Part shown: positions 17,353 through 29,811 of the stretch, piece after piece | Layout of the letters: each line of letters starts with the position of its first letter | How positions within the stretch are numbered: the stretch's first letter is position 1 | Virus record (IMG/VR): IMGVR_UViG_2534681672_000003 | Location: 1-56,022 of that record | DNA: 56,022 nucleotides | Strand: one strand, 5' to 3' | From: a virus | Lineage: Duplodnaviria > Heunggongvirae > Uroviricota > Caudoviricetes | Translations under genes and position numbers: made by a program | Notes under the pieces: model-generated | The model's database searches: none | Told to the model about the DNA's origin: nothing | The model's input: only the letters and a program-made list of their open reading frames with translations

Positions 17353-18141
17353 TTACGCCAGTTGTACGGACACGAACTCATCAGGGTCAGCCAGCAGCAT
17401 CAGCGGTGCTGACTGAATCATGGTGAACTCACGCGCCGGATCGCCGGTGGTCACCCAGTTTTTCGGGTAGCGGGCAGAGGCGTTAATGCCTTCGCGCTGT
17501 GCGTCCGCATCCTGAATGCAGCCATAGGTGCGCAGACCGCGTGCCTGAGTGTTCCCCAGCACCATCGTGTTGTCCGGCAGGAAGTTCTTTTTGACGCCGT
17601 TTTCCACGTACTGTCCGGAATACACGACGATGGCCACATCGCCATACATTCCCTTATAGGACACCGCTTTGCCCAGGTCTTTTACCGCTGTCTCCAGCTC
17701 GGAATGAGAGCCGCGACGGGTATCCAGCTTCTCCCTGACGGCTTTGAAAGAACGGAACAGCGCCCAGCCTTTCGGATCAAACACGATGATATTCACCACA
17801 CCGCTGGCGTTCAGCGCGTAGGCTTCGATATCGTCTGTCGGGTCATACGTGGACTTGTCACGCTTGCTCCACTCCGTGCCGCCGGACTGCGTGATGTTAT
17901 TCGCCTCACTGCGGCCCATATCCACCTCAACCGGATCGAAGGCTTCACCGGTCATGGTGTATTTGCCCTTAAGCACGGCAGAAACTGCCTGCATCTCTTC
18001 GACCTGAGCAATGGCCAGCTCTTCGTCACGCATGTTCTGCATGATGATGCGACGGCGGCGGTAAGTCGGGTCCGCCAGATTCTGCGGATCTTCATCCGGC
18101 AGGCGACGCAGGGTCATCTGCGGATTCACCTCATGCTTCGG
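17353..18141 (-). pseudogene. E: major capsid protein E, 3' fragment (codons from ...PKHEVNPQMTLRRLPDED to the stop)
   Basis: Lambda E C-terminal two-thirds; upstream reading frame hits a stop immediately past 18141, where unrelated AT-rich sequence begins. Confidence 0.9.
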
Positions 18142-18143: not shown

Positions 18144-18220
18144 ACATGAGTCAAATATGAAAGGATGTGAATGATTTGATTACGTTTTAGCTATAGAATT
18201 GAAATGGAAAATCCTTGAAT

Positions 18221-18240
18221 GCAATACAACGTGCAATACA
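18221..18240. promoter_or_regulatory. candidate integrase arm-type site GCAATACAA-CGT-GCAATACA (left arm)
   Basis: Same motif in the same orientation at 29419-29438 near the other junction. Confidence 0.5.
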
Positions 18241-18277
18241 TGGATGAAAACCATCACTCATTTAACAAGAGGAATCT

Positions 18278-19183
18278 ATGCGCTCACCCAACAGAATGCA
18301 TGAACGCTCAACATTTTATAAGTATATGTCGTTGAATACCGCGAAGATTGTTCTTGATTCATGCAGCCTTAGATGGAGTTCTCCGGTCCTATTTAATGAC
18401 CCTTTTGATGTTCCAAGAGAAGTTATGCCTGGTATTAACGAAATTAATATTGGCAAAGCTTTAGCCCGCAAGTTAATAGCGGAGTTGATTACCCCCAGAG
18501 AAGACATACAAAATTTAAACCCTAGAATTAGAACAATGCTAAGTGATTTCCAAAAGTCATTTCCTTTAGGCATACCCGCAGGATTAATTGAAAGATTTCA
18601 AGAAATGGTAAACATTCCACCAGTTGGGATTGGCGCTCCTGCGGCAATACAAGAAATGAAAGATGTCTGGCGAGGAATGCTTAATAACAGAAGGATTTTG
18701 TGTTTATCTGAGAGCCCTATAATCACTCCTATGTGGAATCACTATGCCGATAAATATAAAGGTATAGTTATCGAATTTGATTGTGTAGACTTTCTGGATA
18801 GCGCTTGGTTAATAGCCAAACCTATGAAATACACAGATGAAATGCCTCTAACTCACACTGCTGAAGGGATGGCCGAGTTGCTTTTCATGCCAGACAATAA
18901 GTCAATTGAATATATCAATAATGAGATAATATTCATAAAAACAGAAGAATGGGCATATGAAAGAGAGTGGAGAATTTCAACCTACGCTAGGCCAAATAGC
19001 ACTGGTCAATATAGCGACTTAAAATTTCACCCTTTTGAGTTAAAATCTGTAATACTTGGTCCTCTTTTTGATGCCAGCGAGTTCGATGAAGTCGCATCAC
19101 TAGTTAAGATGTATCCAAGAGCGAAATTATTTAAAAGTTCATTTGGGAACGACAGAAAAATATCCATAGTACCACTACCTTAA
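18278..19183 (+). CDS. DUF2971 family protein (AT-rich cargo; candidate anti-phage function)
   Basis: N-terminal YKYMSLNTAKIVLDSCSLRWSSPVLFNDPFD matches the DUF2971 signature as recalled; AAGAGG RBS; low GC. Confidence 0.65.
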   Translation: MRSPNRMHERSTFYKYMSLNTAKIVLDSCSLRWSSPVLFNDPFDVPREVMPGINEINIGKALARKLIAELITPREDIQNLNPRIRTMLSDFQKSFPLGIPAGLIERFQEMVNIPPVGIGAPAAIQEMKDVWRGMLNNRRILCLSESPIITPMWNHYADKYKGIVIEFDCVDFLDSAWLIAKPMKYTDEMPLTHTAEGMAELLFMPDNKSIEYINNEIIFIKTEEWAYEREWRISTYARPNSTGQYSDLKFHPFELKSVILGPLFDASEFDEVASLVKMYPRAKLFKSSFGNDRKISIVPLP

Positions 19184-19223
19184 AAGGTCAAATGCTTTTG
19201 ACAAATAAAATCTATCGCCAGTT

Positions 19224-19240
19224 TTACTGGCGACTTTTAA
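19224..19240. terminator. bidirectional hairpin GCCAGT-TTT-ACTGGC between convergent genes
   Basis: Inverted repeat between the DUF2971 stop and the nu1-like stop. Confidence 0.45.
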
Positions 19241-19289
19241 GCAACAAAGAACCACCTAAGCACTCTTCCTACCTATGGTTTCATTTGTT

Positions 19290-19841
19290 TTAACTTCGCT
19301 GATTATCCTTGATATACCTTTCAGCCATATCTGGAATGTTATCTGAGATCTGGTAAGCTCGAATAAATGCTTTACTGACCTCCATCTTAATGAAGTCCTG
19401 ATACCGTTTTCCCATGCCAGGAAACTGTCGACAGATCGCAAGTGGAAGACTATCAATGATTGCTCCAACTTCCCCAGTTAATTTCGACAAGGCATAAGTC
19501 GCAAATGCAGTGTCAATTACCTCACCTGTTTCGCTGGCATTCTTCAGTTCCTGTGCGTCGGCCTGCGCACGCGTAAGTCGATGGCGTTCATACTCAATAG
19601 TCCCTGGCAGGAGATCTGCCTCGCTGGCCTGCCGCAGTTCTTCAACCTCCCGGCGCAGCTTTTCGTTCTCAATTTCAGCATCCCTTTCGGCATACCATTT
19701 TATGACGGCGGCAGAGTCATAAAGCACCTCATTACCCTTGCCACCGCCTCGCAGAACGGGCATTCCCTGCTCCTGCTAGTTCTGAATGGTACGGATACTC
19801 GCACCGAAAATGTCAGCCAGCTGCTTTTTGTTGGCTTCCAT
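19290..19841 (-). pseudogene. nu1-like small terminase subunit paralogue with in-frame TAG at codon 22 (possible restart at Met27)
   Basis: First two-thirds nearly identical at DNA level to helper nu1 (35283-35828) except TGG to TAG at 19776-19778; C-terminal third diverged. Confidence 0.7.
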
Positions 19842-19859
19842 TGTTCATTCCACGGACAA

Positions 19860-20060
19860 AACCAGAGAAAGGAAACGACAGAGGCCAAAAAGCCTGTTTT
19901 TAGCACCTGTCGTTTCCTTTCTTTTTAGGGGGTGTTTTTAATAAAAACATTAAGTTACGGCGAAGAAGAACGGAAACGCCTTAAACAGGAAAATTTTCAC
20001 AAATAGCGAAAAACTGCGCGCCTGACGCCCCGTAGCCTGTCAGATCGCCGGAAAGGACCC
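19860..20060. other. element cos site (cosB-like R-site sequences plus variant cosN at about 20019-20030)
   Basis: Aligns to helper cos at 35838-36030; flanks conserved, 12-nt overhang positions differ. Confidence 0.65.
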
Positions 20061-20086
20061 GCCAGCCAGAGCGGGCCCTAATTTCA

Positions 20087-20470
20087 TCAACCAATCAGCT
20101 TATAGCGACCATCCCGTGCATTGCGGCGTACACGCTCAATCTTGAGGCATAGCGCCGCATCTGGCTTTTTTGGGACAGGTACGCGGCAATATTCAGAAGC
20201 GCGAGGAATATTATTTATCCAGTCGATCACTTCACTTAAATACCAGGCCTTACGCCCTTCCGTAACCTGCACACGCTCCGGGAACTCTCCACTAGCCTCA
20301 AGGTTTAGCAGTGTACGACGACTCAGGGTTGTAATTTCCATCACCTGATTCATATCAACAAGGCGCTCGCTTAAACACATTTTGTCAGCGATAGCTTTTA
20401 ATTCCTCTACAGCTGGATTCGGGTACATCATTTCGGCAATTGGCTTAAGGTCATTGTAATCATTCTGCAT
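20087..20470 (-). CDS. AlpA/Xis-type HTH DNA-binding protein
   Basis: Motif TTLSRRTLLNLEASGEFPERVQVTEGRKAWYLSEVIDWI; AGGGGG RBS; last gene of the capsid operon, ending about 57 bp from cosN. Confidence 0.6.
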   Translation of the reverse strand: MQNDYNDLKPIAEMMYPNPAVEELKAIADKMCLSERLVDMNQVMEITTLSRRTLLNLEASGEFPERVQVTEGRKAWYLSEVIDWINNIPRASEYCRVPVPKKPDAALCLKIERVRRNARDGRYKLIG

Positions 20471-20481
20471 TGTATCCCCCT

Positions 20482-20823
20482 TTACACACGAGCCAGCGGC
20501 TGAACAGAAATACCTGAGCCAACAAACGCTGCAACCTTTACTGACAGTTCTTTAACAGACTCAGGCCAGTTCAGAGCATCAACATTTAAGACACCTGTCT
20601 TATAGACCTGAGCCTGTGTTTTTTTCGCGGTGTCGATTTGTACAGCGGAAACATAAACCGCTTTACCTACGCTCGAACCATCCCATACCACCAGTGCACC
20701 TGTTGCATCTTCCTGCATCAGTGGCGTAAATGCAGGAATTACCCCTTTATTAGCTGAAAATATCCCCAGCGTAGTCACCAGTGCTTCAGTGCCAGCCATG
20801 AGTTCAGTGTAATGAGTAGCCAT
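20482..20823 (-). CDS. head decoration protein, lambda D-like
   Basis: Alignable by eye to helper D (TPLM, WDG, YK-G, WPE, AF-G-IS shared); AGGGGGAG RBS. Confidence 0.7.
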   Translation of the reverse strand: MATHYTELMAGTEALVTTLGIFSANKGVIPAFTPLMQEDATGALVVWDGSSVGKAVYVSAVQIDTAKKTQAQVYKTGVLNVDALNWPESVKELSVKVAAFVGSGISVQPLARV

Positions 20824-20832
20824 TGCTCCCCC

Positions 20833-21873
20833 TTAGCCAATGCGAACGGTAACAAAACGATTGATGCGGGCCGGTATTGGCTGTGGTGCTGAATGTGTCT
20901 GCACATATTCAATAGCCGGATCACCAGGCACAATATAGTTTTTCGGTGCAAGTTCGGCTTTAGTCAGCCCCATTCGGATTAGCTCCGGATCCTGAATACC
21001 GCCATAGGCGACAATCCCCTGAAGAGCCGTATTGCCAAGCACCATCAAATCAGGATCAAGGAAATGTTTTTCTGTTCCGTCCTCGTCGGTATAACGCCCG
21101 CTGTAAACAACAATCGCAACATCGCCCATATACCCTTTAAAACTCACCGAATCACCAAGGTCTTTAAGGGCCGTTTCCAGTTCGGAATTAGAACCACGAC
21201 GGGTATCCAAAGCCTCTTTTATCGCTCTGAATGAACGGTATTTCTTCCATACATTACCACCCATAATGATGATATTAGTGACGCCCTCACTAAATTCTGC
21301 GTAGCTCTCAATATCATCATTTGGATCAAAAGTTTCTTTATCCTTACCTGACCACTCAGTACCGCCAGACTGAGTGATGATATTTTGTGGTTTTATATTC
21401 CAGTCCAGCTCATAACGTTCAATACCATCGCCCTCAATGATATTTTTCCCCGTTGTGATAGCCTGAACAGCAAGCCATTCAATACGTGCACGAATAGCTT
21501 TAGCCTGATTTACAATCGCCTGTTTAACTTTAATATTACGCGCCCCAAAAGCATTGTATTGCTCAGGTGACACACCAGCAGGGCGCACAGCTAACTTATT
21601 TGGATCAATGCTGCTTTTCGGCTTCATATAACCTGGACGAATTGTTTTTGATTCGTATCCCTCATCTCGTGAAACTTTACTGCCCACCATAGGAGAGCAA
21701 AACGCCGCGATCGGGATATTTGGATCGTCGATCGTATCAAGAATAATGTCTCTCGATTCAAACATTACCGAGCGAGTGAAAAACAAACTGGTAAACAACG
21801 CATTTAATTTTTTTTGTACATCTACAGCATTAACCACCTGTACAAGCTGAGTAGGCGAATATAAATCAACCAT
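20833..21873 (-). CDS. major capsid protein, lambda E-like (HK97 fold)
   Basis: 346 aa, alignable over the full length to helper E (ITQSGGTEWS, ALDTRRGSNSELETA, DVAIVVYSG shared); start trimmed to the ATG after AAGAGG. Confidence 0.8.
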   Translation of the reverse strand: MVDLYSPTQLVQVVNAVDVQKKLNALFTSLFFTRSVMFESRDIILDTIDDPNIPIAAFCSPMVGSKVSRDEGYESKTIRPGYMKPKSSIDPNKLAVRPAGVSPEQYNAFGARNIKVKQAIVNQAKAIRARIEWLAVQAITTGKNIIEGDGIERYELDWNIKPQNIITQSGGTEWSGKDKETFDPNDDIESYAEFSEGVTNIIIMGGNVWKKYRSFRAIKEALDTRRGSNSELETALKDLGDSVSFKGYMGDVAIVVYSGRYTDEDGTEKHFLDPDLMVLGNTALQGIVAYGGIQDPELIRMGLTKAELAPKNYIVPGDPAIEYVQTHSAPQPIPARINRFVTVRIG

Positions 21874-22074
21874 ACGCATCCTCTTTGCATTCATTAAAAA
21901 TAATTGTGGATATATGCTATCACCGATATTTGTCATGCGAACACATGCAACCGAGTGCAATGTTGTATAAAGTTTTGGGGTGACAACTTCAGTGCGGACA
22001 ATTAGTGTTAATATCTTCACTCCCTTTGGTCGGGATTTATGTAGCATGCAGGAAAATTTATTTTTTCCGGCCTT

Positions 22075-22792
22075 TTTGTGCACAGAAAACCCCCAGCTAG
22101 GCTGGGGGTTCCGGAAAGCTTTCAGCTTTGAGCCAGTTATTAAAACCCCTTTTGATTTGTTAAAACACTTTGCGGTCTGGCAACTGCAAGTGTCAAACAA
22201 GAAATCAAAAGGGGGTCCCAATGGGGAACGAAAAGAGCTTAGCGCACACCCGATGGAACTGTAAATATCACATAGTTTTTGCGCCAAAATACCGAAGACA
22301 GGTGTTCTACAGAGAGAAGCGTAGAGCAATAGGCAGTATTTTGAGAAAGCTGTGTGAGTGGAAAAGCGTACGGATTCTGGAAGCTGAATGCTGTGCAGAT
22401 CATATCCATATGCTTGTGGAGATCCCGCCCAAAATGAGCGTATCCGGGTTTATGGGATATCTGAAAGGGAAAAGCAGTCTGATGCTTTACGAGCAGTTTG
22501 GTGATTTGAAATTCAAATACAGGAACAGGGAGTTCTGGTGCAGAGGGTACTACGTCGATACAGTGGGTAAGAACACGGCGAAGATACAGGATTACATAAA
22601 GCACCAGCTTGAAGAGGATAAAATGGGAGAGCAGTTATCGATTCCCTATCCGGGCAGCCCGTTTACGGGCCGTAAGTAACGAAGTTGGATGCAAATGTCA
22701 GATCGTGTGCGCCTGTTAGGGCGCGGCTGGTAAGAGAGCCTTATAGGCGCATTTGAAAAACCTCCGGCTATGCCGGAGGATATTTATTTTAT
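22075..22792 (+). mobile_element. IS200 insertion sequence
   Basis: IS200-type TnpA flanked by terminal hairpins (about 22087-22110 and 22771-22789); boundaries approximate. Confidence 0.8.
22221..22679 (+). CDS. tnpA: IS200 transposase TnpA (Y1/HUH)
   Basis: MGNEKSLAHTRWNCKYHIVFAPKYRRQVFY... matches IS200 TnpA as recalled; trimmed to the ATG at 22221. Confidence 0.92.
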   Translation: MGNEKSLAHTRWNCKYHIVFAPKYRRQVFYREKRRAIGSILRKLCEWKSVRILEAECCADHIHMLVEIPPKMSVSGFMGYLKGKSSLMLYEQFGDLKFKYRNREFWCRGYYVDTVGKNTAKIQDYIKHQLEEDKMGEQLSIPYPGSPFTGRK

Positions 22793-22801
22793 TGGCAATA
22801 T

Positions 22802-23251
22802 TTAAAACGGGATATCATCTCCCCATTGCTCATTATCTCCCACTGGTGGCTGGCTTCCTTGCTGATCTGCCTGTTGTTTTGCTCTGTTCAGTGCGTCAGT
22901 AGCCTGCCCCTGTTGGCCTTTATTGCCGCCCGGTCGCACCGATCGCGCACTGATTACGCTGTCTGCGATAACCTGCCAGCCCTGCCGCGTTTCGCCGTTC
23001 TGTCCAGTCCACTGGCTCATCTGCATGTTACCCGCCACGCTCAGGAGTTCGCCTTTGTGATGCTTTGCCAGCGCGTCGGCTTGTCTGCCAAACGCCAGGA
23101 CAGATAACCACATCGTCGCCTGACCGTCATCCGACTGACTGCAGGGCAGTGATACCGCCATACGCGCCAACGTCATGGGGGTGCCCTTGCTGGTCTGTTT
23201 TGTCTGCGGGTCGTCCACCGACCGCCCGTAAACTGATATTTGCGCCGTCAT
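22802..23251 (-). CDS. SSB-like protein with C-terminal DDIPF tip
   Basis: Ends ...NEQWGDDIPF (SSB acidic-tip motif); glycine/glutamine-rich linker; AT-skewed neighbourhood. Confidence 0.5.
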   Translation of the reverse strand: MTAQISVYGRSVDDPQTKQTSKGTPMTLARMAVSLPCSQSDDGQATMWLSVLAFGRQADALAKHHKGELLSVAGNMQMSQWTGQNGETRQGWQVIADSVISARSVRPGGNKGQQGQATDALNRAKQQADQQGSQPPVGDNEQWGDDIPF

Positions 23252-23493
23252 GCGGCCTGCTCTCCGGACTTAATATTGATTGTTGTCACTTCCTCCGCTT
23301 CAGCAATCTCCCGTTCGGTCAGAGTGGCAAAGTTTGCAGCCGCCGTTGTCATGAATGCGCTAATCAGTTCGGGATGTGCTTTCGCGTATCCTTCCCCGGC
23401 GTTGCGGTCGATGATTTTTATCGACACCCTTAACCAGTGTTCCGTCAAATCAAGGGCGTGCGATTGTGATTTTTTTGTGTGCTTCGCTGTCAT
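23248..23493 (-). CDS. hypothetical protein
   Basis: 81-aa ORF, stop overlapping the SSB-like start. Confidence 0.35.
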   Translation of the reverse strand: MTAKHTKKSQSHALDLTEHWLRVSIKIIDRNAGEGYAKAHPELISAFMTTAAANFATLTEREIAEAEEVTTINIKSGEQAA

Positions 23494-23538
23494 AGGCTTT
23501 ATCTCACAGCAGTAAATTAAAATTTTTGCGTTTTAACC

Positions 23539-23770
23539 CTTCACCTGTTCACCTTTTGATATTTTCTCTTTTAATTCATAATGTTAATGGGTGAACAGTT
23601 TCACAAAAACTATTCACCAACTGTTCACCACTGTTCACCCTTGAAGCTCAATAAACAATCAAAAAGGTGAACAGTGAATAGTTTGGTGAACAGTTCATAA
23701 ATAACTGTTCACCCTATAATATACTGATATAAAAGATATTTATGACAGGGTGAACAGTGGTGAACAGTTA
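23539..23770. repeat. replication-origin iterons, about 9 copies of TGTTCACC / GGTGAACAG in both orientations
   Basis: Octamer recalled as the P4 alpha binding site at ori/crr; lies directly downstream of the primase-helicase gene. Confidence 0.7.
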
Positions 23771-23780
23771 TTCCATAAGT

Positions 23781-25601
23781 TTAATTTTTGCTATCGTCAT
23801 TAGTGACCGATACACATGATGGCATCCAGTCTTCTGATTCCTCCGTCAGGGTCACGTTTGAACGCAAACCGTGCTTCGTTTTCCGTTTCATATACTCCCT
23901 GCCATATTCCGCCATTGCCCCCGGCATATCTTTACCGAAGCGCGTCAGTGTTACAGGTTTACCAAACCCATGTGCCCTCATATAAGCCAGATAGGCATGA
24001 TAGAGATACCTGCGTGGGCTGAATGGCACAATTTCAGCATTACCCACTAACAGGCCATCACACATTACCGATGCCATGAGATAACCGCAGAAGTCCACCA
24101 GCGAATCCCCCTCTCGCTTTATCGCCAGTGCTTCTTCAGATTTCTGCTGCTCATATAACAGGCGTCTGGCTTCGTCCTGATCAGCAAACCTTGTAAGCAG
24201 ATGACGAATCACTACCGCCAGCTCACCTTCTATTTTTTCCGCCAGCATCGAATCGCGTTCGTTCTCCGGTACAACTTCCGAAAAATTGAATATCACCCGA
24301 CGACGTGAGATCCCCCCGCTGCGGTCACTGAATGACATGGCGTTATTGTTAACCGCCAGCACTACTGCCGGAATACGCGTTGAATAGGGGGCTTTGTGTT
24401 TCGGGTCAATTGCCACCTTGTCACCGCCTGTAATGGCCTTAATCCCTGCCCCATCACCAGCGTAGCGGGTCATATCCGGCATGATAATCAGCGAAAAGCC
24501 AACCACTAACGCACGTTCCCTTGCATCTTCCAGCGCCTTCATGCTTGCTGATACTGTATTAGCCTTACCCGCCAGCATGGTGCAAATCTCCGCCATCACA
24601 CTTTTACCACTTCCCCCCGGCCCTGTTACCTCAATGAATAACTGCCAGTCGTACCGGTTCGCCAGCACCATGAATAATGCCGCCAGTACGCGATCTGCCT
24701 TGCGGTCATTCTCAGCCACCGAACGGCGCAACCACTTCCAGAAATTCGGCGCATGTGTTGCCAGCGTTTCCCCCTCTGCTGGTGGGCTGAAAGGTAATTC
24801 ACTGGCAATTAACAACCAGTCGTTTTTGTTATGCTCCCGAAAGTTACCAGTTCTGGTATCAAATACCCCGTTACTGAATCCAATCAGGTTACGGGCTGTA
24901 TTCCCCATTACAGGCAAACTTAACTTCATGGTATCTACCGCCGATTTAATAGCGTTCTGCGAATAGCTGATCTCCGCATCAATGAAAATCTGCGCCATAG
25001 CACGCTGTAACTCTTTATCCTGAACCGGCTCCCATACAACGCCGTTGTAATGATGAACGGTGTCAGAGTCGGCATTGATTGCCAGTTCGCCGCCGTAATG
25101 TGCAAGGAGAACTTCACCGCGCTGGCTGGCCCCCATCTGATTCAACGCCAAAGATGAAGCACGCTCGTCATTTTTGCGCTCAGCCTTCTTCACTGGCAGT
25201 TCAATCACCAGACTTTCCCCATGCTCCGCTTCAGCTTTTAGGCCGACAAGGCGCGGAGTCCAGTCTTCAGGCTCTCGATCAACAAAGCTACGGTAACAAC
25301 GTGCTTCCTTTACGCCTGCAATAGCAAGTAATGTCGCAACCTTCGTCAGACTTTTCTCTGCAATCTTTCCGGCACGATAAACACGCACATAATGACGGCC
25401 TTCATCGATAATTTGCATATCATCCAGGTTTTCCAGTTGTTCCGTACCCAGAATGACTGGTGGTGTATCATCTGCTGCAATATGCTTACCTGCCCATTCA
25501 TTCCATTCTTTTGCATGGCTCCAGGCATCACTGCCAGCAAAAATGATGACTTCCGTCATTTTGTCGCGCGGTTGGTATTTTAAGTTCGGAGCACGTTTCA
25601 T
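23781..25601 (-). CDS. replication initiation primase-helicase (P4 alpha-like, P-loop NTPase)
   Basis: Walker A VTGPGGSGKS; 606 aa; GGAGG RBS; adjacent to the iteron origin. Confidence 0.65.
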   Translation of the reverse strand: MKRAPNLKYQPRDKMTEVIIFAGSDAWSHAKEWNEWAGKHIAADDTPPVILGTEQLENLDDMQIIDEGRHYVRVYRAGKIAEKSLTKVATLLAIAGVKEARCYRSFVDREPEDWTPRLVGLKAEAEHGESLVIELPVKKAERKNDERASSLALNQMGASQRGEVLLAHYGGELAINADSDTVHHYNGVVWEPVQDKELQRAMAQIFIDAEISYSQNAIKSAVDTMKLSLPVMGNTARNLIGFSNGVFDTRTGNFREHNKNDWLLIASELPFSPPAEGETLATHAPNFWKWLRRSVAENDRKADRVLAALFMVLANRYDWQLFIEVTGPGGSGKSVMAEICTMLAGKANTVSASMKALEDARERALVVGFSLIIMPDMTRYAGDGAGIKAITGGDKVAIDPKHKAPYSTRIPAVVLAVNNNAMSFSDRSGGISRRRVIFNFSEVVPENERDSMLAEKIEGELAVVIRHLLTRFADQDEARRLLYEQQKSEEALAIKREGDSLVDFCGYLMASVMCDGLLVGNAEIVPFSPRRYLYHAYLAYMRAHGFGKPVTLTRFGKDMPGAMAEYGREYMKRKTKHGLRSNVTLTEESEDWMPSCVSVTNDDSKN

Positions 25602-25885
25602 TTGTTACCTCCGGCAACTAACATTGCCCGAATTTTACGGATATAGCCTGCGGCACGCCTCTGATTATCTGTCTTGCAATTTTTTACCAGAATGAAATCT
25701 CTTTCGAACTGCTGACGCGGCATAACACATTCAAAATCATAACCATCACGCAAATAAGAGACACGACGATCATCAACCGAAATAATCTTTACCCGATAGC
25801 CATAGCTGTCTTTGAAAATATCCCCAAGGCTGATTTTTGAATGAGTTTGACCGCTGGCAATAAAGCCAGAAAATTTATTTTTCAT
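25598..25885 (-). CDS. hypothetical protein (replication operon)
   Basis: 95-aa ORF with ATGA overlap onto the primase start. Confidence 0.4.
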   Translation of the reverse strand: MKNKFSGFIASGQTHSKISLGDIFKDSYGYRVKIISVDDRRVSYLRDGYDFECVMPRQQFERDFILVKNCKTDNQRRAAGYIRKIRAMLVAGGNK

Positions 25886-25888
25886 TTT

Positions 25889-26113
25889 TTATTCTCCGGT
25901 ATAGCTCTGGTCGTGTATTTTTATAGCTTCATCCAGCTCTTTGATGACAGGATCAAGTAACGTAATTAACGCTCCAGCTAAATTAGCATCCCGTTCATCG
26001 TGTTCCGCATTTGTTGTCCCATCAAGCCAGGTTGATAAGATTTCTCGCATATTTTTGCCACAAACGAGCGCGTTTTCAGCATGTGTCAGCACTTTAAAAT
26101 AAAGATCATTCAT
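25889..26113 (-). CDS. hypothetical protein
   Basis: 74-aa ORF in the same operon. Confidence 0.35.
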   Translation of the reverse strand: MNDLYFKVLTHAENALVCGKNMREILSTWLDGTTNAEHDERDANLAGALITLLDPVIKELDEAIKIHDQSYTGE

Positions 26114-26471
26114 GGCACACCTCCTGACGAATACGGGCGGCGAATATCATCACGTAGCCAGTTGGGAATTGCTGGCGGGCTTCCTGTTCGCTGGCGGCCT
26201 CGATGTGTATTACGCGTGGTTGTGCGGTGCTCAGGGCGATAAAACGCCAGATGAAATTGTTTTCGCATTTCTGAATAAACAGCGTGTTTTCTTCACGCCC
26301 TTTCCAGAAAGCCGCAGTATAGCCCATCTCCTTAACCATCTTGCGGGCATCAACCAGCGTGTCAGCGGCAACATGTACCGTAGTTGCTCCATCTGCCATG
26401 CGGTCGTGGTGTAGTGCCAGAAAGGTGTATATAAATTTAGGGTGAGTTTGGGTATGCTGTGTTCCAGCCAT
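26106..26471 (-). CDS. hypothetical protein, first gene of the leftward operon
   Basis: 121 aa from the ATG after a GAGG RBS; the longer ORF-track version runs antisense through the neighbouring gene and was trimmed. Confidence 0.45.
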   Translation of the reverse strand: MAGTQHTQTHPKFIYTFLALHHDRMADGATTVHVAADTLVDARKMVKEMGYTAAFWKGREENTLFIQKCENNFIWRFIALSTAQPRVIHIEAASEQEARQQFPTGYVMIFAARIRQEVCHE

Positions 26472-26554
26472 AATCGTTACCTCGTTTAACGGTTTGGTTA
26501 GAAGCCCGGTTAGTGTTCGCGCACTGCCGGGTTTCGTCGTTTTTATGAATCGAT

Positions 26555-26670
26555 CATTGTGAGATACATAGCGACCATGATGTGAGATATACATTATAAT
26601 GTGGTGATATACATTGCAAGTGTTTTTATATCTCACTTTTGTGTATAGTGATATACACATAACAAATTGG
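26555..26670. promoter_or_regulatory. divergent promoter/operator region with repeated GTGAGATA(T)ACAT and GTGATATACA motifs
   Basis: At least five direct and inverted copies between the divergent operons. Confidence 0.6.
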
Positions 26671-26679
26671 TGATTAACT

Positions 26680-26982
26680 ATGTCTGTATACAAAAATGCA
26701 AAATCGCAAATGACAACGATCAGGGTTCCCCACGATGTTATGGAGGGCATGGAATCCGTAAAACTGGACGGCGAAAGCAACGCCGGATTCATAGTAACCG
26801 CCATGCGCGGTGAGATCGCCCGCCGCCAGGCAGAAGGAAGCGGAGAAAATCCCCTCGTGTCTTCACTGGATGCCTTAGCTAAGGTCGAACAAATCGGCAT
26901 CAAGGCAGCGGAGGAAATCGGGCAACTCGTAGCCGTCGCTCGTGAAGAACTCCAGCGGCGTAAAGCCAAAGAATCTGAATAA
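26680..26982 (+). CDS. putative ribbon-helix-helix (CopG/Arc-like) regulator
   Basis: TTIRVPHDVMEGMESVKL...NAGFIVTAMRGEI fits a strand-helix-helix pattern; sits beside the operator repeats. Confidence 0.4.
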   Translation: MSVYKNAKSQMTTIRVPHDVMEGMESVKLDGESNAGFIVTAMRGEIARRQAEGSGENPLVSSLDALAKVEQIGIKAAEEIGQLVAVAREELQRRKAKESE

Positions 26983-27332
26983 TTACTATCAGCGCCGTGA
27001 TGTGAGTAACTACGGCGCATTGCTATGTAAATACTGGCAATAAACAGAAAAGGTAGTTCTACTCCGAATAATTTTATCTGACACTACTCCTGAACTAACA
27101 TGCGCTTATCTTACAGGATATAAATATAGATCCATAAAATCACGATTAAATAAAGCCGCTCCAAACATAAACCACACCCAACGCTTAACAAGATAGCAAC
27201 AAACAGATAAATAACTTGCAGAAATATTTATCGCAAGGATTATCATTATTAATTACAAATCACTTTACCAAGTCATTCCCCTCTCTTATCATAAAGAGAA
27301 AGTAATAAATAAGTTAAGGGAGTTAGAATACT

Positions 27333-27869
27333 ATGAATCTAAAAAAAATAGCCACAAACATAAAAAACAAGATAATAGAAACATTCAATAAACTTATATT
27401 AGAGGCATCTAAAACCCCCACACAAGATGAAATTAAAATACTTGAGAGAAGAAGTAAAAAGTTTAATTACTCCTTTTTCTCATACGCAGTCACAGGAGCC
27501 ATAATGGTTTTTTGCTCTCAACCATTAATAAAATACGCAAACCCAATGCTTATTTTATTGAGTGGTCTGTTACTGTCTATCATCATTATCCTTCTCAGAA
27601 TGATTTATATTTCACAAGCGAATGCATCATGGACAACCAAAAAACGTTCACATGTACTAGTTCATTTTCTTTCTGCATGTTTCATAGCGTCAACATTGAC
27701 GTTGTTATATCAGGCTTACGATAATAACATCACACACAAATTGTACTGTAAAAATATACAACAACTTATTGAAAAAAGGATAGAAACAGAAAAAAATATC
27801 AGCATATTCAGTGGGATGCAATGCACCCCGGCATATGATTACTCTTTATTTGGATTTAATCTCTTATAA
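27333..27869 (+). CDS. AT-rich membrane protein (cargo, unknown function)
   Basis: 178 aa, hydrophobic segments, very low GC, preceded by about 300 bp of AT-rich DNA. Confidence 0.5.
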   Translation: MNLKKIATNIKNKIIETFNKLILEASKTPTQDEIKILERRSKKFNYSFFSYAVTGAIMVFCSQPLIKYANPMLILLSGLLLSIIIILLRMIYISQANASWTTKKRSHVLVHFLSACFIASTLTLLYQAYDNNITHKLYCKNIQQLIEKRIETEKNISIFSGMQCTPAYDYSLFGFNLL

Positions 27870-27938
27870 AGAATGTTATTACTGATTTGAGTGCAAATTC
27901 TCAAATCAGTAATTCATAATATTTTATTCTGAGATAAT

Positions 27939-28166
27939 TTAAACTACCCACTCACCTCGAATCCATGCCTGCACTTCTGAAAGACGATATGCAACAGCAG
28001 TGGAGCCAATCTTGATCCGCTTAGGAAATTTCCCTTCCTTCTCCAGCTTCCAGCGTGTGCTGTTCGCAAGAGTGGTTAGCTCCCGACATTCTTTCTCACG
28101 GATCATACGATCGATGTTAGGAATGTACTCCAAACCCTTTTTATCAACAATCGCCATTTTTTTCAT
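27939..28166 (-). CDS. alpA: AlpA-family transcriptional regulator/excisionase
   Basis: 75 aa with AlpA-type HTH (LTTLANSTRWKLEKEGKFPKRIKIG); directly downstream of int. Confidence 0.75.
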   Translation of the reverse strand: MKKMAIVDKKGLEYIPNIDRMIREKECRELTTLANSTRWKLEKEGKFPKRIKIGSTAVAYRLSEVQAWIRGEWVV

Positions 28167-28167
28167 G

Positions 28168-29403
28168 TTAACCAGCCTTTTGTTTGAGGATTATCACTTT
28201 TGAATCAGCACCTGCGATGCTATTGAGATATGTAGTCCAGAGTTCCAGAGCATCCAGTTTTTTAGCCATAAACTTACTCCGGTTGTAAACACCTGCCACG
28301 CCAGGTAGCGCATGGCCTAACAGTTGTTCTACTACATAAAATTCAACACCGAGATCACTTAGATGAGTAGATAGCGTTCTTCTAAGGTCGTGTAGTGACC
28401 ATTGTTTTTCATGGCCCAAACGTTTACCGATTTTCCCCCCAATCTTGCTTACGCTTTCTCTAATTCGCAGACTTCCCAGCACATAACCAGTATGTTTTGT
28501 CTCTTCGTGAACATCCGTTACCCACTGTCGTAGAATTTCAGGTACTGGTCTGACGATTTCAACACCAGTTTTTGAGTGATCTTTTGGTACCGTCCAAACC
28601 CAACTTTCGAGATCCCATTCGCTCCATTCAGATAATCGGGCTTCACTCATTCGACATCCAAATACTGTACAAAGCACAAACATTTTTCGCGTGTATTCAG
28701 ACATTAGTTTTAAATCAGGCTCGACAAAAATTGCCTTCCAGAGCTGGCCCAGTTCGGCTTCATCCAGAACCCGATCCCGCTTACCTGCAATCTGCCCCAC
28801 ATCACTCATGCGCAAATCCTTTAAAGCATCACATGTCGCGTACTGGCGTACCCGACAAAAACGAAGAGCTAATTTAGTGTCAGAAAAAACATACGCCGCC
28901 ATAACTGGTGCATTACGTTTAATTCGGTCAAAACAGTCCAGCCATTCATATAGGTGAGTGTCATTTACAGGCAAATGACCGATATAGGGAAAGATATGCT
29001 TTCGAAATCTGCCAAGCGTTACAGCATGAGTTTTACGACGCACCTTACAGTAATTTTCATACCAGTAATTTAGTGCATCCTCCACTGTGACCGGCTTTAA
29101 GCGTTCTTCAGCCTGAATCTTAATCTGGATACGCGGATCACGTTTGTCAGCCAACCAACCACGGCACTCGTCGCGCTTTTCCCTTGCCTGTTTGAGTGAC
29201 ATATCAGGATATTTACCCAACGTTAGCCAGACCGGAGCAGCCCGGCCACCTGCTAACCTGTAGAAGAAAACAAAGCTCACAGCCCCCTTGGTACTCACAC
29301 GAATAGAAAGCCCCTTTCCATCAGCAATGGTGATCTGCTTTTCTCTGGGTTTCCCCAGATATCCTTTAAGCGCTTTGTCGCTCAGTTTGTTCTCGCCAGC
29401 CAT
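28168..29403 (-). CDS. int: tyrosine integrase, P4/CP4-57 family with N-terminal arm-binding domain
   Basis: N-terminus LSDKALKGYLGKPREKQITIADGKGLSIRVSTKG; C-terminal HDLRRT...LLGH...Y catalytic motifs; trimmed to the ATG at 29403. Confidence 0.85.
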   Translation of the reverse strand: MAGENKLSDKALKGYLGKPREKQITIADGKGLSIRVSTKGAVSFVFFYRLAGGRAAPVWLTLGKYPDMSLKQAREKRDECRGWLADKRDPRIQIKIQAEERLKPVTVEDALNYWYENYCKVRRKTHAVTLGRFRKHIFPYIGHLPVNDTHLYEWLDCFDRIKRNAPVMAAYVFSDTKLALRFCRVRQYATCDALKDLRMSDVGQIAGKRDRVLDEAELGQLWKAIFVEPDLKLMSEYTRKMFVLCTVFGCRMSEARLSEWSEWDLESWVWTVPKDHSKTGVEIVRPVPEILRQWVTDVHEETKHTGYVLGSLRIRESVSKIGGKIGKRLGHEKQWSLHDLRRTLSTHLSDLGVEFYVVEQLLGHALPGVAGVYNRSKFMAKKLDALELWTTYLNSIAGADSKVIILKQKAG

Positions 29404-29418
29404 TTTTAGCCCCAAAAA

Positions 29419-29438
29419 GCAATACAAGCTGCAATACA
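29419..29438. promoter_or_regulatory. candidate integrase arm-type site GCAATACAA-GCT-GCAATACA (right arm)
   Basis: Matches the left-arm motif at 18221-18240. Confidence 0.5.
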
Positions 29439-29566
29439 GAGATGATTGCAACACACAGATAACGAGGAAAATTCAGTGAAAGCGCCAGATAAACTTATTC
29501 TTTATTATCAAAAGATTAAGTGTAAAAACCAGCAACTACACGAAAGCCTCAGAAAGCCATGCTAAG

Positions 29567-29576
29567 TGCTTCGGCT
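29567..29576. repeat. right copy of 10-bp direct repeat TGCTTCGGCT
   Basis: Identical to 18134-18143. Confidence 0.75.
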
Positions 29577-29811
29577 TGACATATCCCGGCGTAAATTCAG
29601 AGGTGGAGCCGCCACGGGAACGGATAACCTCACCGGAAACAATCGGCGAAACGTACAGCGCCATGTTTACAAGTCCCGGAATTTGTGAGAGATAGACTTT
29701 CTCCGTAGTGAAGGGATAGCTCTCACGGAAAAAGAGACGCAGAAACAGCGGATCAAACTTAAATTTCTGCTCATTTGCCGCCAGCAGCTGGGCGGTTGTG
29801 TACATCGACAT
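29567..29811 (-). pseudogene. E: major capsid protein E, 5' fragment (MSMYTTAQLL...GYVKPKH)
   Basis: Lambda E N-terminus; frame leaves E sequence right after KPKH at the junction. Confidence 0.9.

Follow-up and report, generated by a model that had tools for sequence, protein, structure and literature searches.

An AT-rich cassette encoding a candidate anti-phage membrane protein in the variable slot of a helper-embedded phage-inducible chromosomal island

Satellite and prophage hotspots are productive places for finding new anti-phage genes. Here we report an accessory cassette in a 56,022-nucleotide stretch of DNA from a virus of the Caudoviricetes (IMG/VR record IMGVR_UViG_2534681672_000003, positions 1 to 56,022; hereafter the window), which places a single gene, ORF178, between a ylcI-like regulatory gene and the alpA and int genes of a helper-embedded phage-inducible chromosomal island (PICI). 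In related elements the same slot holds defence genes or genes of other kinds, or is empty. ORF178 encodes a predicted inner-membrane protein, and the gene, which lies in a hotspot of a familiar type, is a well-founded anti-phage candidate. It is the commonest slot occupant found (68 of 177 genomes), yet it was missed by every defence-finding model applied.

The host element, its integration into a capsid gene and the variable defence cargo next to int and alpA have already been published. New are the exactly delimited cassette, an unannotated membrane-protein family with a conserved, predicted periplasmic cysteine-pair domain, and the observation that ORF178 is the commonest occupant of the slot in Escherichia coli and recurs there in diverged form. 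An abortive-infection (Abi) or superinfection-exclusion function had been suggested in the original prediction, which a model made from the letters of the window; as a candidate function it rests on genomic context and predicted topology.

The cassette and its slot

The slot DNA is a 100% match to the chromosome of E. coli SCU-102 (NZ_CP051753.1), and the gene content of the element was taken from the RefSeq annotation of that region together with Pfam scans. Starting from the integrase, the gene order is int, alpA, ORF178, ylcI, icd-like, DUF4222, D5-type primase, single-stranded DNA-binding protein (SSB) and capsid. The slot and its borders comprise the following features:

27028-27938, no strand: accessory cassette, about 0.91 kb, 31% GC, between the ylcI-like gene and alpA (junction homology and composition)
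27333-27869, plus strand: ORF178, 178-aa protein, ATG to TAA, RefSeq WP_001049526.1 'hypothetical protein' (open reading frame (ORF) and RefSeq annotation)
26680-26982, plus strand: 100-aa YlcI/YnfO-family (ribbon-helix-helix-like) gene of the satellite regulatory module (NCBIfam YlcI_YnfO_N, E 8.5e-20)
27939-28166, minus strand: alpA (Pfam Phage_AlpA, E 2.8e-15)
28168-29403, minus strand: tyrosine integrase (int) of the helper-embedded PICI clade (Pfam matches, RefSeq annotation)

The limits of the cassette follow from homology with elements that lack it. On the left, homology with two cargo-less PICIs (L034, L035) runs through the ylcI-like gene and its downstream hairpin and ends at 27024-27027. 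On the right, homology with elements carrying other cargo resumes at 27934-27948, at the alpA stop codon; against those of them whose regulator gene differs too, the left limit lies inside or just past the icd-like gene (both by pairwise BLAST). The GC content of ORF178 (31.3%) and of the region upstream of it (27021-27332, 31.7%) is far below that of the whole window (49%) and of the neighbouring genes (alpA and int 45%, ylcI-like 52%, icd-like 51%, primase 50%).

The segment from int to alpA was present at 95% identity or more in 177 of 5426 complete E. coli genomes, whereas the slot DNA with the ORF178 cassette was found in 68, so that 109 of the 177 are without it. Slot content was surveyed in eleven other elements of complete E. 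coli genomes with matching int and alpA, several of which also encode an identical primase protein, and in further loci with ORF178:

L002, L003: SWIM plus DUF2971
L004: 305-aa unknown
L005: 273-aa unknown
L006: ribbon-helix-helix (RHH)-like gene plus putAbiC-family gene (Pfam E 2.8e-16)
L031: TIR-domain protein, PADLOC candidate system PDC-S35, E 7e-67
L032: HicB-like plus 241-aa unknown
L033: HicB-like plus 360-aa protein identified as PADLOC PD-T7-1, E 1e-124
L009: ORF178, as in the metagenomic and draft-genome loci L007 and L008

At least seven alternative occupants were thus seen, among them the DUF2971 protein, which has a weak PDC-S31 match. The DUF2971 type occurred in 36 genomes, putAbiC in 11, the 305-aa protein in 6 and the 273-aa protein in 4; against these numbers the 68 genomes with ORF178 make it the commonest occupant found. 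No cargo fills the slot of L034 and L035, two PICIs located elsewhere on the chromosomes of E. coli Nissle and CFS3313; there a homologous ylcI is followed directly by alpA. The ylcI-like gene itself was present in 406 genomes, which marks it as a member of the satellite regulatory module and not as a partner of ORF178.

Since near-identical elements have other cargo in the slot and related PICIs have none, the ORF178 cassette is dispensable cargo in a defence hotspot. It lies between int-alpA and the regulation and replication genes, the content of its slot is variable and sometimes missing, and the other occupants include recognised anti-phage genes, as is typical of PICI hotspot cargo. PD-T7-1 is an experimentally validated defence system (PMC9519451). 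PICIs are reported to carry immune systems at both their 5' and their 3' ends (PMC11364771, citing Fillol-Salom et al. 2022), and the zone after int and alpA in helper-embedded PICIs has been termed 'dynamic' (PMC10111431). The original prediction had placed an AT-rich cargo locus, starting at 27021, in a variable-gene slot between the regulatory module and alpA/int. Its start is nearly exact, coding and upstream regions have the contrast in GC to their flanks that it described, and the position holds, with ylcI and icd on one side and alpA and int on the other. The comparison across related elements that it proposed agrees with it as well: near-identical elements have defence or unknown genes instead, related PICIs have none, and the slot content varies instead of being conserved and essential.

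Three signals were found around ORF178:

27264-27292, plus strand: predicted sigma-70 promoter-like site, TTTACC / 17 nt spacer / TATCAT, 41 nt 5' of the ATG (consensus scan, 9/12)
27316-27322, plus strand: Shine-Dalgarno-like AAGGGAG, 10 nt before the ATG (read from the sequence)
27878-27913, no strand: perfect 14-bp inverted repeat between the convergent genes ORF178 and alpA (terminator scan)

The inverted repeat folds with -21.2 and -18.2 kcal/mol on the two strands (z-scores -5.0 and -4.5 against shuffled sequences) and is likely a bidirectional terminator shared by ORF178 and alpA. Even without a protective role of ORF178, the locus is a clean case of how such a slot is built, with exact junctions, a shared terminator and a regulator gene that is independent of the cargo.

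A 46-aa hydrophobic ORF (MIILAINISASYLSVCCYLVKRWVWFMFGAALFNRDFMDLYLYPVR) lies on the minus strand at 27106-27246, within the upstream region of the cassette. It lacks an obvious Shine-Dalgarno sequence, and in DNA so rich in AT it has probably arisen by chance.

The ORF178 gene and its family

At the local base composition, in which one codon in 13 should be a stop, 178 codons stay stop-free with a probability of 7.6e-7. In 2000 shuffles of the region, ORF length did not exceed 141 codons (mean 54), and no shuffle matched the length of ORF178. E. coli-type loci were represented by the window, L007-L009 and 20 IMG/VR contigs; in all 24, ORF178 was intact and had the same architecture. These loci fall into two allele groups, between which the ratio of non-synonymous to synonymous differences (pN/pS) amounts to 0.16-0.35 over aa 1-82 and to 0.08-0.24 over aa 118-178, with an overall value of 0.5-0.6. 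The remaining codons form a divergent patch:

27579-27683, plus strand: mosaic divergent patch, aa 83-117, covering the end of transmembrane helix (TM) 2, the K/R-rich loop 2 and the start of TM3 (pS 0.31, pN 0.33)

Outside this patch pS is 0.06-0.15 and pN 0.01-0.04. The patch is what distinguishes the two allele groups, it accounts for the 8% divergence of the coding sequence (the upstream region, alpA and int differ by just 0.3-3%), and family-wide no other part is less conserved. Positive selection was considered and rejected, because synonymous and non-synonymous rates are equally raised. The patch looks like an imported mosaic segment, that is, a recombined, weakly constrained stretch of 35 codons over the predicted cytoplasmic loop and the adjoining half-helices.

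A word-indexed search of 5.8 billion proteins returned solely E. coli relatives at least 85% identical to ORF178, plus truncated variants. When 1.84 billion cluster representatives were searched exhaustively with HMMER, ten of them matched, and a profile search added three more. The ORF178 family is therefore small, with about a dozen clusters, none of them annotated. Its distant members come from Phytobacter/Kosakonia, Citrobacter, Ewingella, Pantoea, Pseudomonas and metagenomes; most are 25-34% identical to ORF178, and the two most distant 15-21%. The family aligns end to end, with F48, P64, P71, C139, Q143, F159 and C164 invariant and E153 nearly so (all but one member), and has two motifs, QPL(I/L)K(Y/F)ANP (aa 63-71), which is conserved best of all, and H-D-x-Y-C ... 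E-K-N-S-x-I-F-N-N-M-x-C-R. Among eleven divergent members, mean pairwise identity is 63% in loop 1, 36% in aa 128-166, 19% in loop 2 and 13% in helix 3. The invariant cysteines C139 and C164 are spaced by a constant 25-26 residues across the family.

The only Pfam match of ORF178, to DUF443, reached 18.7 bits (cut-off 26.2) and was dismissed as a match of hydrophobic composition; other family members gave scattered weak matches to unrelated membrane families. Taken together, the conserved family with its invariant residues, the purifying selection outside the patch, the confidently predicted fold described below and the non-chance length establish ORF178 as a real gene.

Predicted architecture

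The original prediction had read positions 27333-27869 as a 178-aa ORF with hydrophobic segments, encoding a membrane protein. The gene runs from ATG to TAA over 178 codons on the plus strand, and its product has three hydrophobic stretches by hydropathy (aa 47-65, 70-93 and 106-127), which coincide with helices of an AlphaFold2 model; both points of the prediction are thus borne out. The model, computed from 13 diverse sequences, is all-helical (helices 3-26, 31-61, 63-68, 71-94, 100-147 and 152-161) with a mean predicted local distance difference test score (pLDDT) of 85.7; with six near-identical E. coli-type sequences as input, the pLDDT was 43 and the model unusable. The protein is divided as follows:

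27333-27470, plus strand: N-terminal segment, about 46 aa, 11 K+R, predicted cytoplasmic (charge counts, helical in AlphaFold2, positive-inside rule)
27471-27527, plus strand: hydrophobic helix 1, aa 47-65, followed by the QPL(I/L)K(Y/F)ANP motif (hydropathy)
27540-27611, plus strand: hydrophobic helix 2, aa 70-93 (Kyte-Doolittle up to 2.78; AlphaFold2 helix 71-94)
27648-27713, plus strand: hydrophobic helix 3, aa 106-127 (hydropathy; within the long AlphaFold2 helix 100-147)
27714-27830, plus strand: conserved C-terminal domain, aa 128-166, predicted periplasmic, with C139/C164, Q143, F159 and E153 (alignments A3, A4)

The three helices and the charge bias are found across the family. Among 11 divergent members, 10 combine 1-5 K/R in loop 2 with a lack of acidic residues there; one member has neither type of residue, and another has one of each. 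The N-terminal segment is rich in K/R in the enterobacterial members and less so in the shorter Pseudomonas-type ones, and the C-terminal domain is charge-balanced. By the positive-inside rule, ORF178 would have its N-terminus inside, loop 1 outside, loop 2 inside and its C-terminus outside, and we infer an inner-membrane protein with three TMs in an N-in/C-out arrangement. This topology would bring both conserved elements, loop 1 and the C-terminal domain, together on the periplasmic side, where C139 and C164 probably form a disulfide.

Genomic contexts of the family

The versions of Phytobacter/Kosakonia/Citrobacter (34% identical; L014, L019, L056) and of locus L057 (32%) lie in the same slot and orientation as ORF178, in helper-embedded satellites that are likewise inside a prophage capsid gene. 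These satellites resemble the element of the window in int (88-91% identity), alpA (92%) and the satellite capsid protein (85-86%), but their slot proteins are just 32-34% identical to ORF178. Although retained at this position, the family has thus diverged much further than the backbone, whether by evolving fast or by being replaced time and again from a pool. In two of these loci a second, unrelated minus-strand gene lies between the family member and alpA (L014 8543-9139, 198 aa; L057 5536-6483, 315 aa). Neither has a significant PADLOC or NCBIfam match, and the 198-aa protein has none in Pfam either.

Elsewhere the surroundings are diverse. One homologue is an antisense insert between phage head-morphogenesis genes, a classic moron position. 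At L010 8303-10447 in Pseudomonas mandelii, a retron type XI reverse transcriptase (RT)-protease gene (PADLOC E 1e-174) is followed on the same strand, after 49 bp, by a homologue; this adjacency occurs in 1 of 13 contexts, and next to the two closest Pseudomonas relatives there are different genes or none. Retron type XI has been described as a single fused gene with no known non-coding RNA and no TM partner (PMC7736814). A role of the family as partner of this retron type found support at no locus beyond L010. Other members lie near a pyocin S gene (Pseudomonas), near an Imm42 gene, in solitary chromosomal islets (including that of Ewingella) or, in Pantoea, at the end of a type VI secretion system (T6SS) cluster next to an HNH protein. 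Across the thirteen genomic contexts no conserved neighbour gene was found, and in all thirteen the family gene is AT-richer than its flanks, by 5-27 GC points.

In three metagenome contigs (L015-L017) the family member is accompanied by a divergent 200-aa gene with a tyrosine-recombinase domain, upstream of umuD/umuC-like genes. Differing left flanks in these contigs suggest a small mobile unit.

Proposed function and alternatives

Envelope-level phage exclusion is the role that we propose for ORF178, and we would give it slightly less than an even chance. The cassette would be a self-contained, moron-like unit of one gene, with a promoter region and a Shine-Dalgarno sequence of its own and a terminator that also serves the convergent alpA. 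ORF178 is oriented against the main operon of the satellite, which points to expression in the resting lysogen. The protein would act alone at the envelope, as suggested by the lack of a conserved partner gene in 13 contexts and by the far greater abundance of ylcI, with its conserved surface (the TM1-TM2 loop and the C-terminal domain of about 40 residues) facing the periplasm. Incoming phages would be excluded, most plausibly by a block of genome passage across the inner membrane similar to that in superinfection exclusion, to the benefit of the cell that carries the composite of prophage and satellite. That phages are the target is suggested by the slot, as a home of anti-phage genes, and by the orientation of the gene opposite to the satellite operon. 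The family also behaves like a mobile gene in an arms race: it is AT-richer than its flanks in every context, has one member in a moron position and, in the satellite slot, differs far more than int, alpA and capsid. A more far-reaching proposal is that ORF178 founds a new single-gene, envelope-level anti-phage family with three TMs and a disulfide-bonded periplasmic domain, which satellites keep in this slot and diversify far faster than their backbone, and which shields the composite from superinfecting phages, possibly lambdoid relatives of the helper, by an entry block; in this full form it is a tentative idea, possible but doubtful.

Several points weigh against phage exclusion. The argument from location is probabilistic, as hotspot cargo is not always defensive, and the contexts at the T6SS cluster end, in islets and near a pyocin gene are equally compatible with other envelope-conflict roles. 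PHROGs, PADLOC and NCBIfam yielded no family for ORF178, and no known superinfection-exclusion, Abi, holin or defence model of these collections or of Pfam matched above threshold; a profile search of PDB sequences gave no match, and fold searches of PDB and BFVD returned nothing beyond generic helical hairpins. The topology is deduced from hydropathy, the positive-inside rule and the cysteine pair, and helix 1 is just moderately hydrophobic (Kyte-Doolittle 1.2-1.5). The promoter is a consensus match, which is weak evidence in AT-rich DNA: the scan found 10 such sites against 6.6 expected. DNA so rich in AT may also be silenced by H-NS. Truncated or frameshifted variants in the databases (P0006-P0008) indicate that the gene is sometimes lost.

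The main rival explanation is an Abi membrane effector that is inert until infection and then permeabilises or depolarises the inner membrane, so that the cell dies before phage release. ORF178 is a small multi-TM protein, a putAbiC-family gene occupies the same slot on the same strand of a sister element, and the position of the P. mandelii homologue downstream of the RT-protease gene is a hint of an effector role; occasional pseudogenisation would also be expected of a costly or toxic gene. However, no conserved sensor partner accompanies the family in the 13 contexts, the closest Pseudomonas relatives of that homologue have other neighbours or none, and no Abi or TM-effector model matched. 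Moreover, the cytoplasmic parts, which would have to sense a phage cue, are the least conserved, whereas the predicted periplasmic face is the most conserved. We regard an Abi effector as unlikely. Less probable still is an envelope-conflict or host-fitness protein unrelated to phages, such as an orphan immunity protein against a bacteriocin or T6SS effector that acts on the membrane or in the periplasm, or a protein with a different envelope function of benefit to the lysogen. A conserved domain facing the periplasm would suit protection from envelope toxins, and the members at the T6SS cluster end, near pyocin S, near Imm42 and in solitary islets fit such a role, but a cognate toxin gene is adjacent in no context, and in Enterobacteriaceae the family is found repeatedly in the anti-phage slot of satellites and in the moron position among phage head genes.

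A part in the life cycle of the satellite, as a holin, an antiholin, in lysis timing or in interference with the helper phage at the membrane, would be in line with the retention of the family in one slot across three diverged satellite lineages and with three TM helices, the number found in class I holins. Class I holins are proteins of about 70-130 aa with an N-out/C-in topology and a charged cytoplasmic C-terminus, encoded in a lysis cassette. Identity as a holin was rejected for ORF178, which has 178 aa, a predicted N-in/C-out topology with a long cytoplasmic N-terminus and a C-terminal domain with a cysteine pair, no adjacent lysis genes and no PHROG or Pfam holin match. As the cassette is also missing from 109 of 177 elements with the same int and alpA, the slot is empty in related PICIs, the gene opposes the satellite operon and the family extends beyond phages and satellites, any such role is very unlikely. 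Even less credit is due to the idea that ORF178 is the toxin of a two-gene module of toxin-antitoxin type with the upstream RHH-like YlcI protein as antitoxin or regulator. In E. coli the gene always follows the 100-aa ylcI-like gene, and sister elements pair small HicB- or RHH-like genes with their cargo. The pairing is not obligate, however (406 genomes against 68, and ylcI next to the empty slot of L034 and L035), the two genes are some 350 bp apart with a hairpin in between, and homologues in other genera have no ylcI-like gene upstream; a YlcI-ORF178 two-gene system was therefore rejected. Finally, a spurious or decaying ORF with no function could be imagined for an orphan annotated as hypothetical, with an overall pN/pS of 0.5-0.6 between alleles and truncated variants, but it is hardly credible in view of the evidence for a real gene given above.

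If ORF178 protects, it would add a compact single-gene membrane mechanism to those known and provide a tractable case of a satellite that defends the prophage in which it is embedded; the predicted periplasmic cysteine-pair domain would then indicate which component of host or phage the protein touches.

Comparison with known systems

The slot shares with PICI immune regions and their 'dynamic zone' the position after int and alpA and the swapping of content between near-identical elements, and its occupants likewise include validated or candidate defence genes (PD-T7-1, TIR/PDC-S35, putAbiC). In the published description of the dynamic zone, Bro-N network proteins and immunity RNAs predominate (PMC10111431). 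Neither was detected here, by Pfam and PHROG scans for the proteins and by Rfam for the RNAs, with no match to a P4-type immunity RNA (C4/isrK) in the slot. A further difference is that ORF178 matches no described defence gene.

HK97 gp15, T4 Imm and P22 SieA are superinfection-exclusion proteins of the inner membrane, small and acting alone, with a functional part thought to face the periplasm. Membrane proteins of this kind are encoded on AT-rich, independently transcribed inserts. Work on gp15 is cited in PMC11364771 (refs 15-16). ORF178 resembles them as a predicted small, lone protein encoded on an AT-rich insert, with a homologue in a moron position. It differs from them in its three predicted TMs, its 46-aa predicted cytoplasmic N-terminus and its cysteine-pair domain, and no sequence or profile similarity to them was detected.

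The putAbiC gene (PF16872) of L006 has the same slot, strand and size class as ORF178 (227 against 178 aa); it encodes an N-terminal hydrophobic segment and has a small RHH-like gene upstream. The two proteins nevertheless show no detectable similarity, and kinship between them was rejected (BLASTP E 2.6; no match of ORF178 to PF16872 or to PADLOC AbiC/AbiP). Lambda RexB and the two-TM effectors of retrons and of cyclic-oligonucleotide-based anti-phage signalling systems (CBASS) are small polytopic Abi membrane proteins of defence loci, which need a sensor partner. Two-TM proteins of Ec48-type retrons have been described (PMC7736814). One ORF178 homologue, directly 3' of the retron type XI RT-protease gene, recalls this arrangement, but unlike these effectors the ORF178 family has no conserved partner.

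The host satellite and its other features

The satellite has a length of about 11.4 kb (about 18150-29560) and splits the major-capsid gene of a lambdoid prophage, in the same orientation as that gene, into halves at 17353-18141 and 29566-29811. This insertion site is common to all 11 related E. coli elements inspected. The doubled TGTATTGC motif of the attachment-site (att) arms occurs twice, at 18221-18240 and 29419-29438, where 0.04 occurrences are expected by chance; its presence in both att arms has been reported for helper-embedded PICIs (Tommasini, Mageeney & Williams 2023, PMC10111431). Its place within a prophage late gene, its co-orientation with that gene and the doubled motif in each att arm identify the host element as a helper-embedded PICI at site E:Phage_cap_E, a configuration already published (PMC10111431). 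It agrees with described helper-embedded PICIs in both capsid-gene integration and att-arm motif.

Past the ylcI-like gene the satellite continues as a minus-strand block, which consists of the Icd-like gene, two small genes, the DUF4222 gene, the D5-type primase, the SSB, an IS200C insertion sequence, the major capsid gene, a head-decoration gene, an AlpA-like helix-turn-helix gene and a small-terminase pseudogene, and is followed by a plus-strand DUF2971 gene. The IS200C copy (22088-22679), between the satellite SSB and capsid genes, comprises an Rfam STnc490 match at 22088-22211 (144.6 bits) and tnpA at 22221-22679, and is not present in the sister elements L002 and L004-L006. The small-terminase gene (19290-19841) is annotated as a pseudogene with an internal stop. 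Together the pseudogene and the IS200 insertion suggest that the satellite copy in the window may have lost full mobilisability.

A second variable locus lies at the opposite end of the satellite. In the window it holds the DUF2971 gene (18425-19183), which matches the PADLOC candidate PDC-S31 (E 8e-26), and in strain 104 (L009 3394-5110) a DUF262 and HEPN pair that matches NsnA / PD-T4-2.

In the regulatory module, the plus strand at 26466-26538 has a sub-threshold Rfam match to the SymR antitoxin RNA (E 3e-5; 35.3 bits, gathering score 61). The match lies in antisense over the start of the icd-like gene and shares sequence with an island of 48 bp (26495-26542) whose conservation between otherwise differing regulatory modules is 83-94%; it may be an antisense regulator of the icd-like operon.

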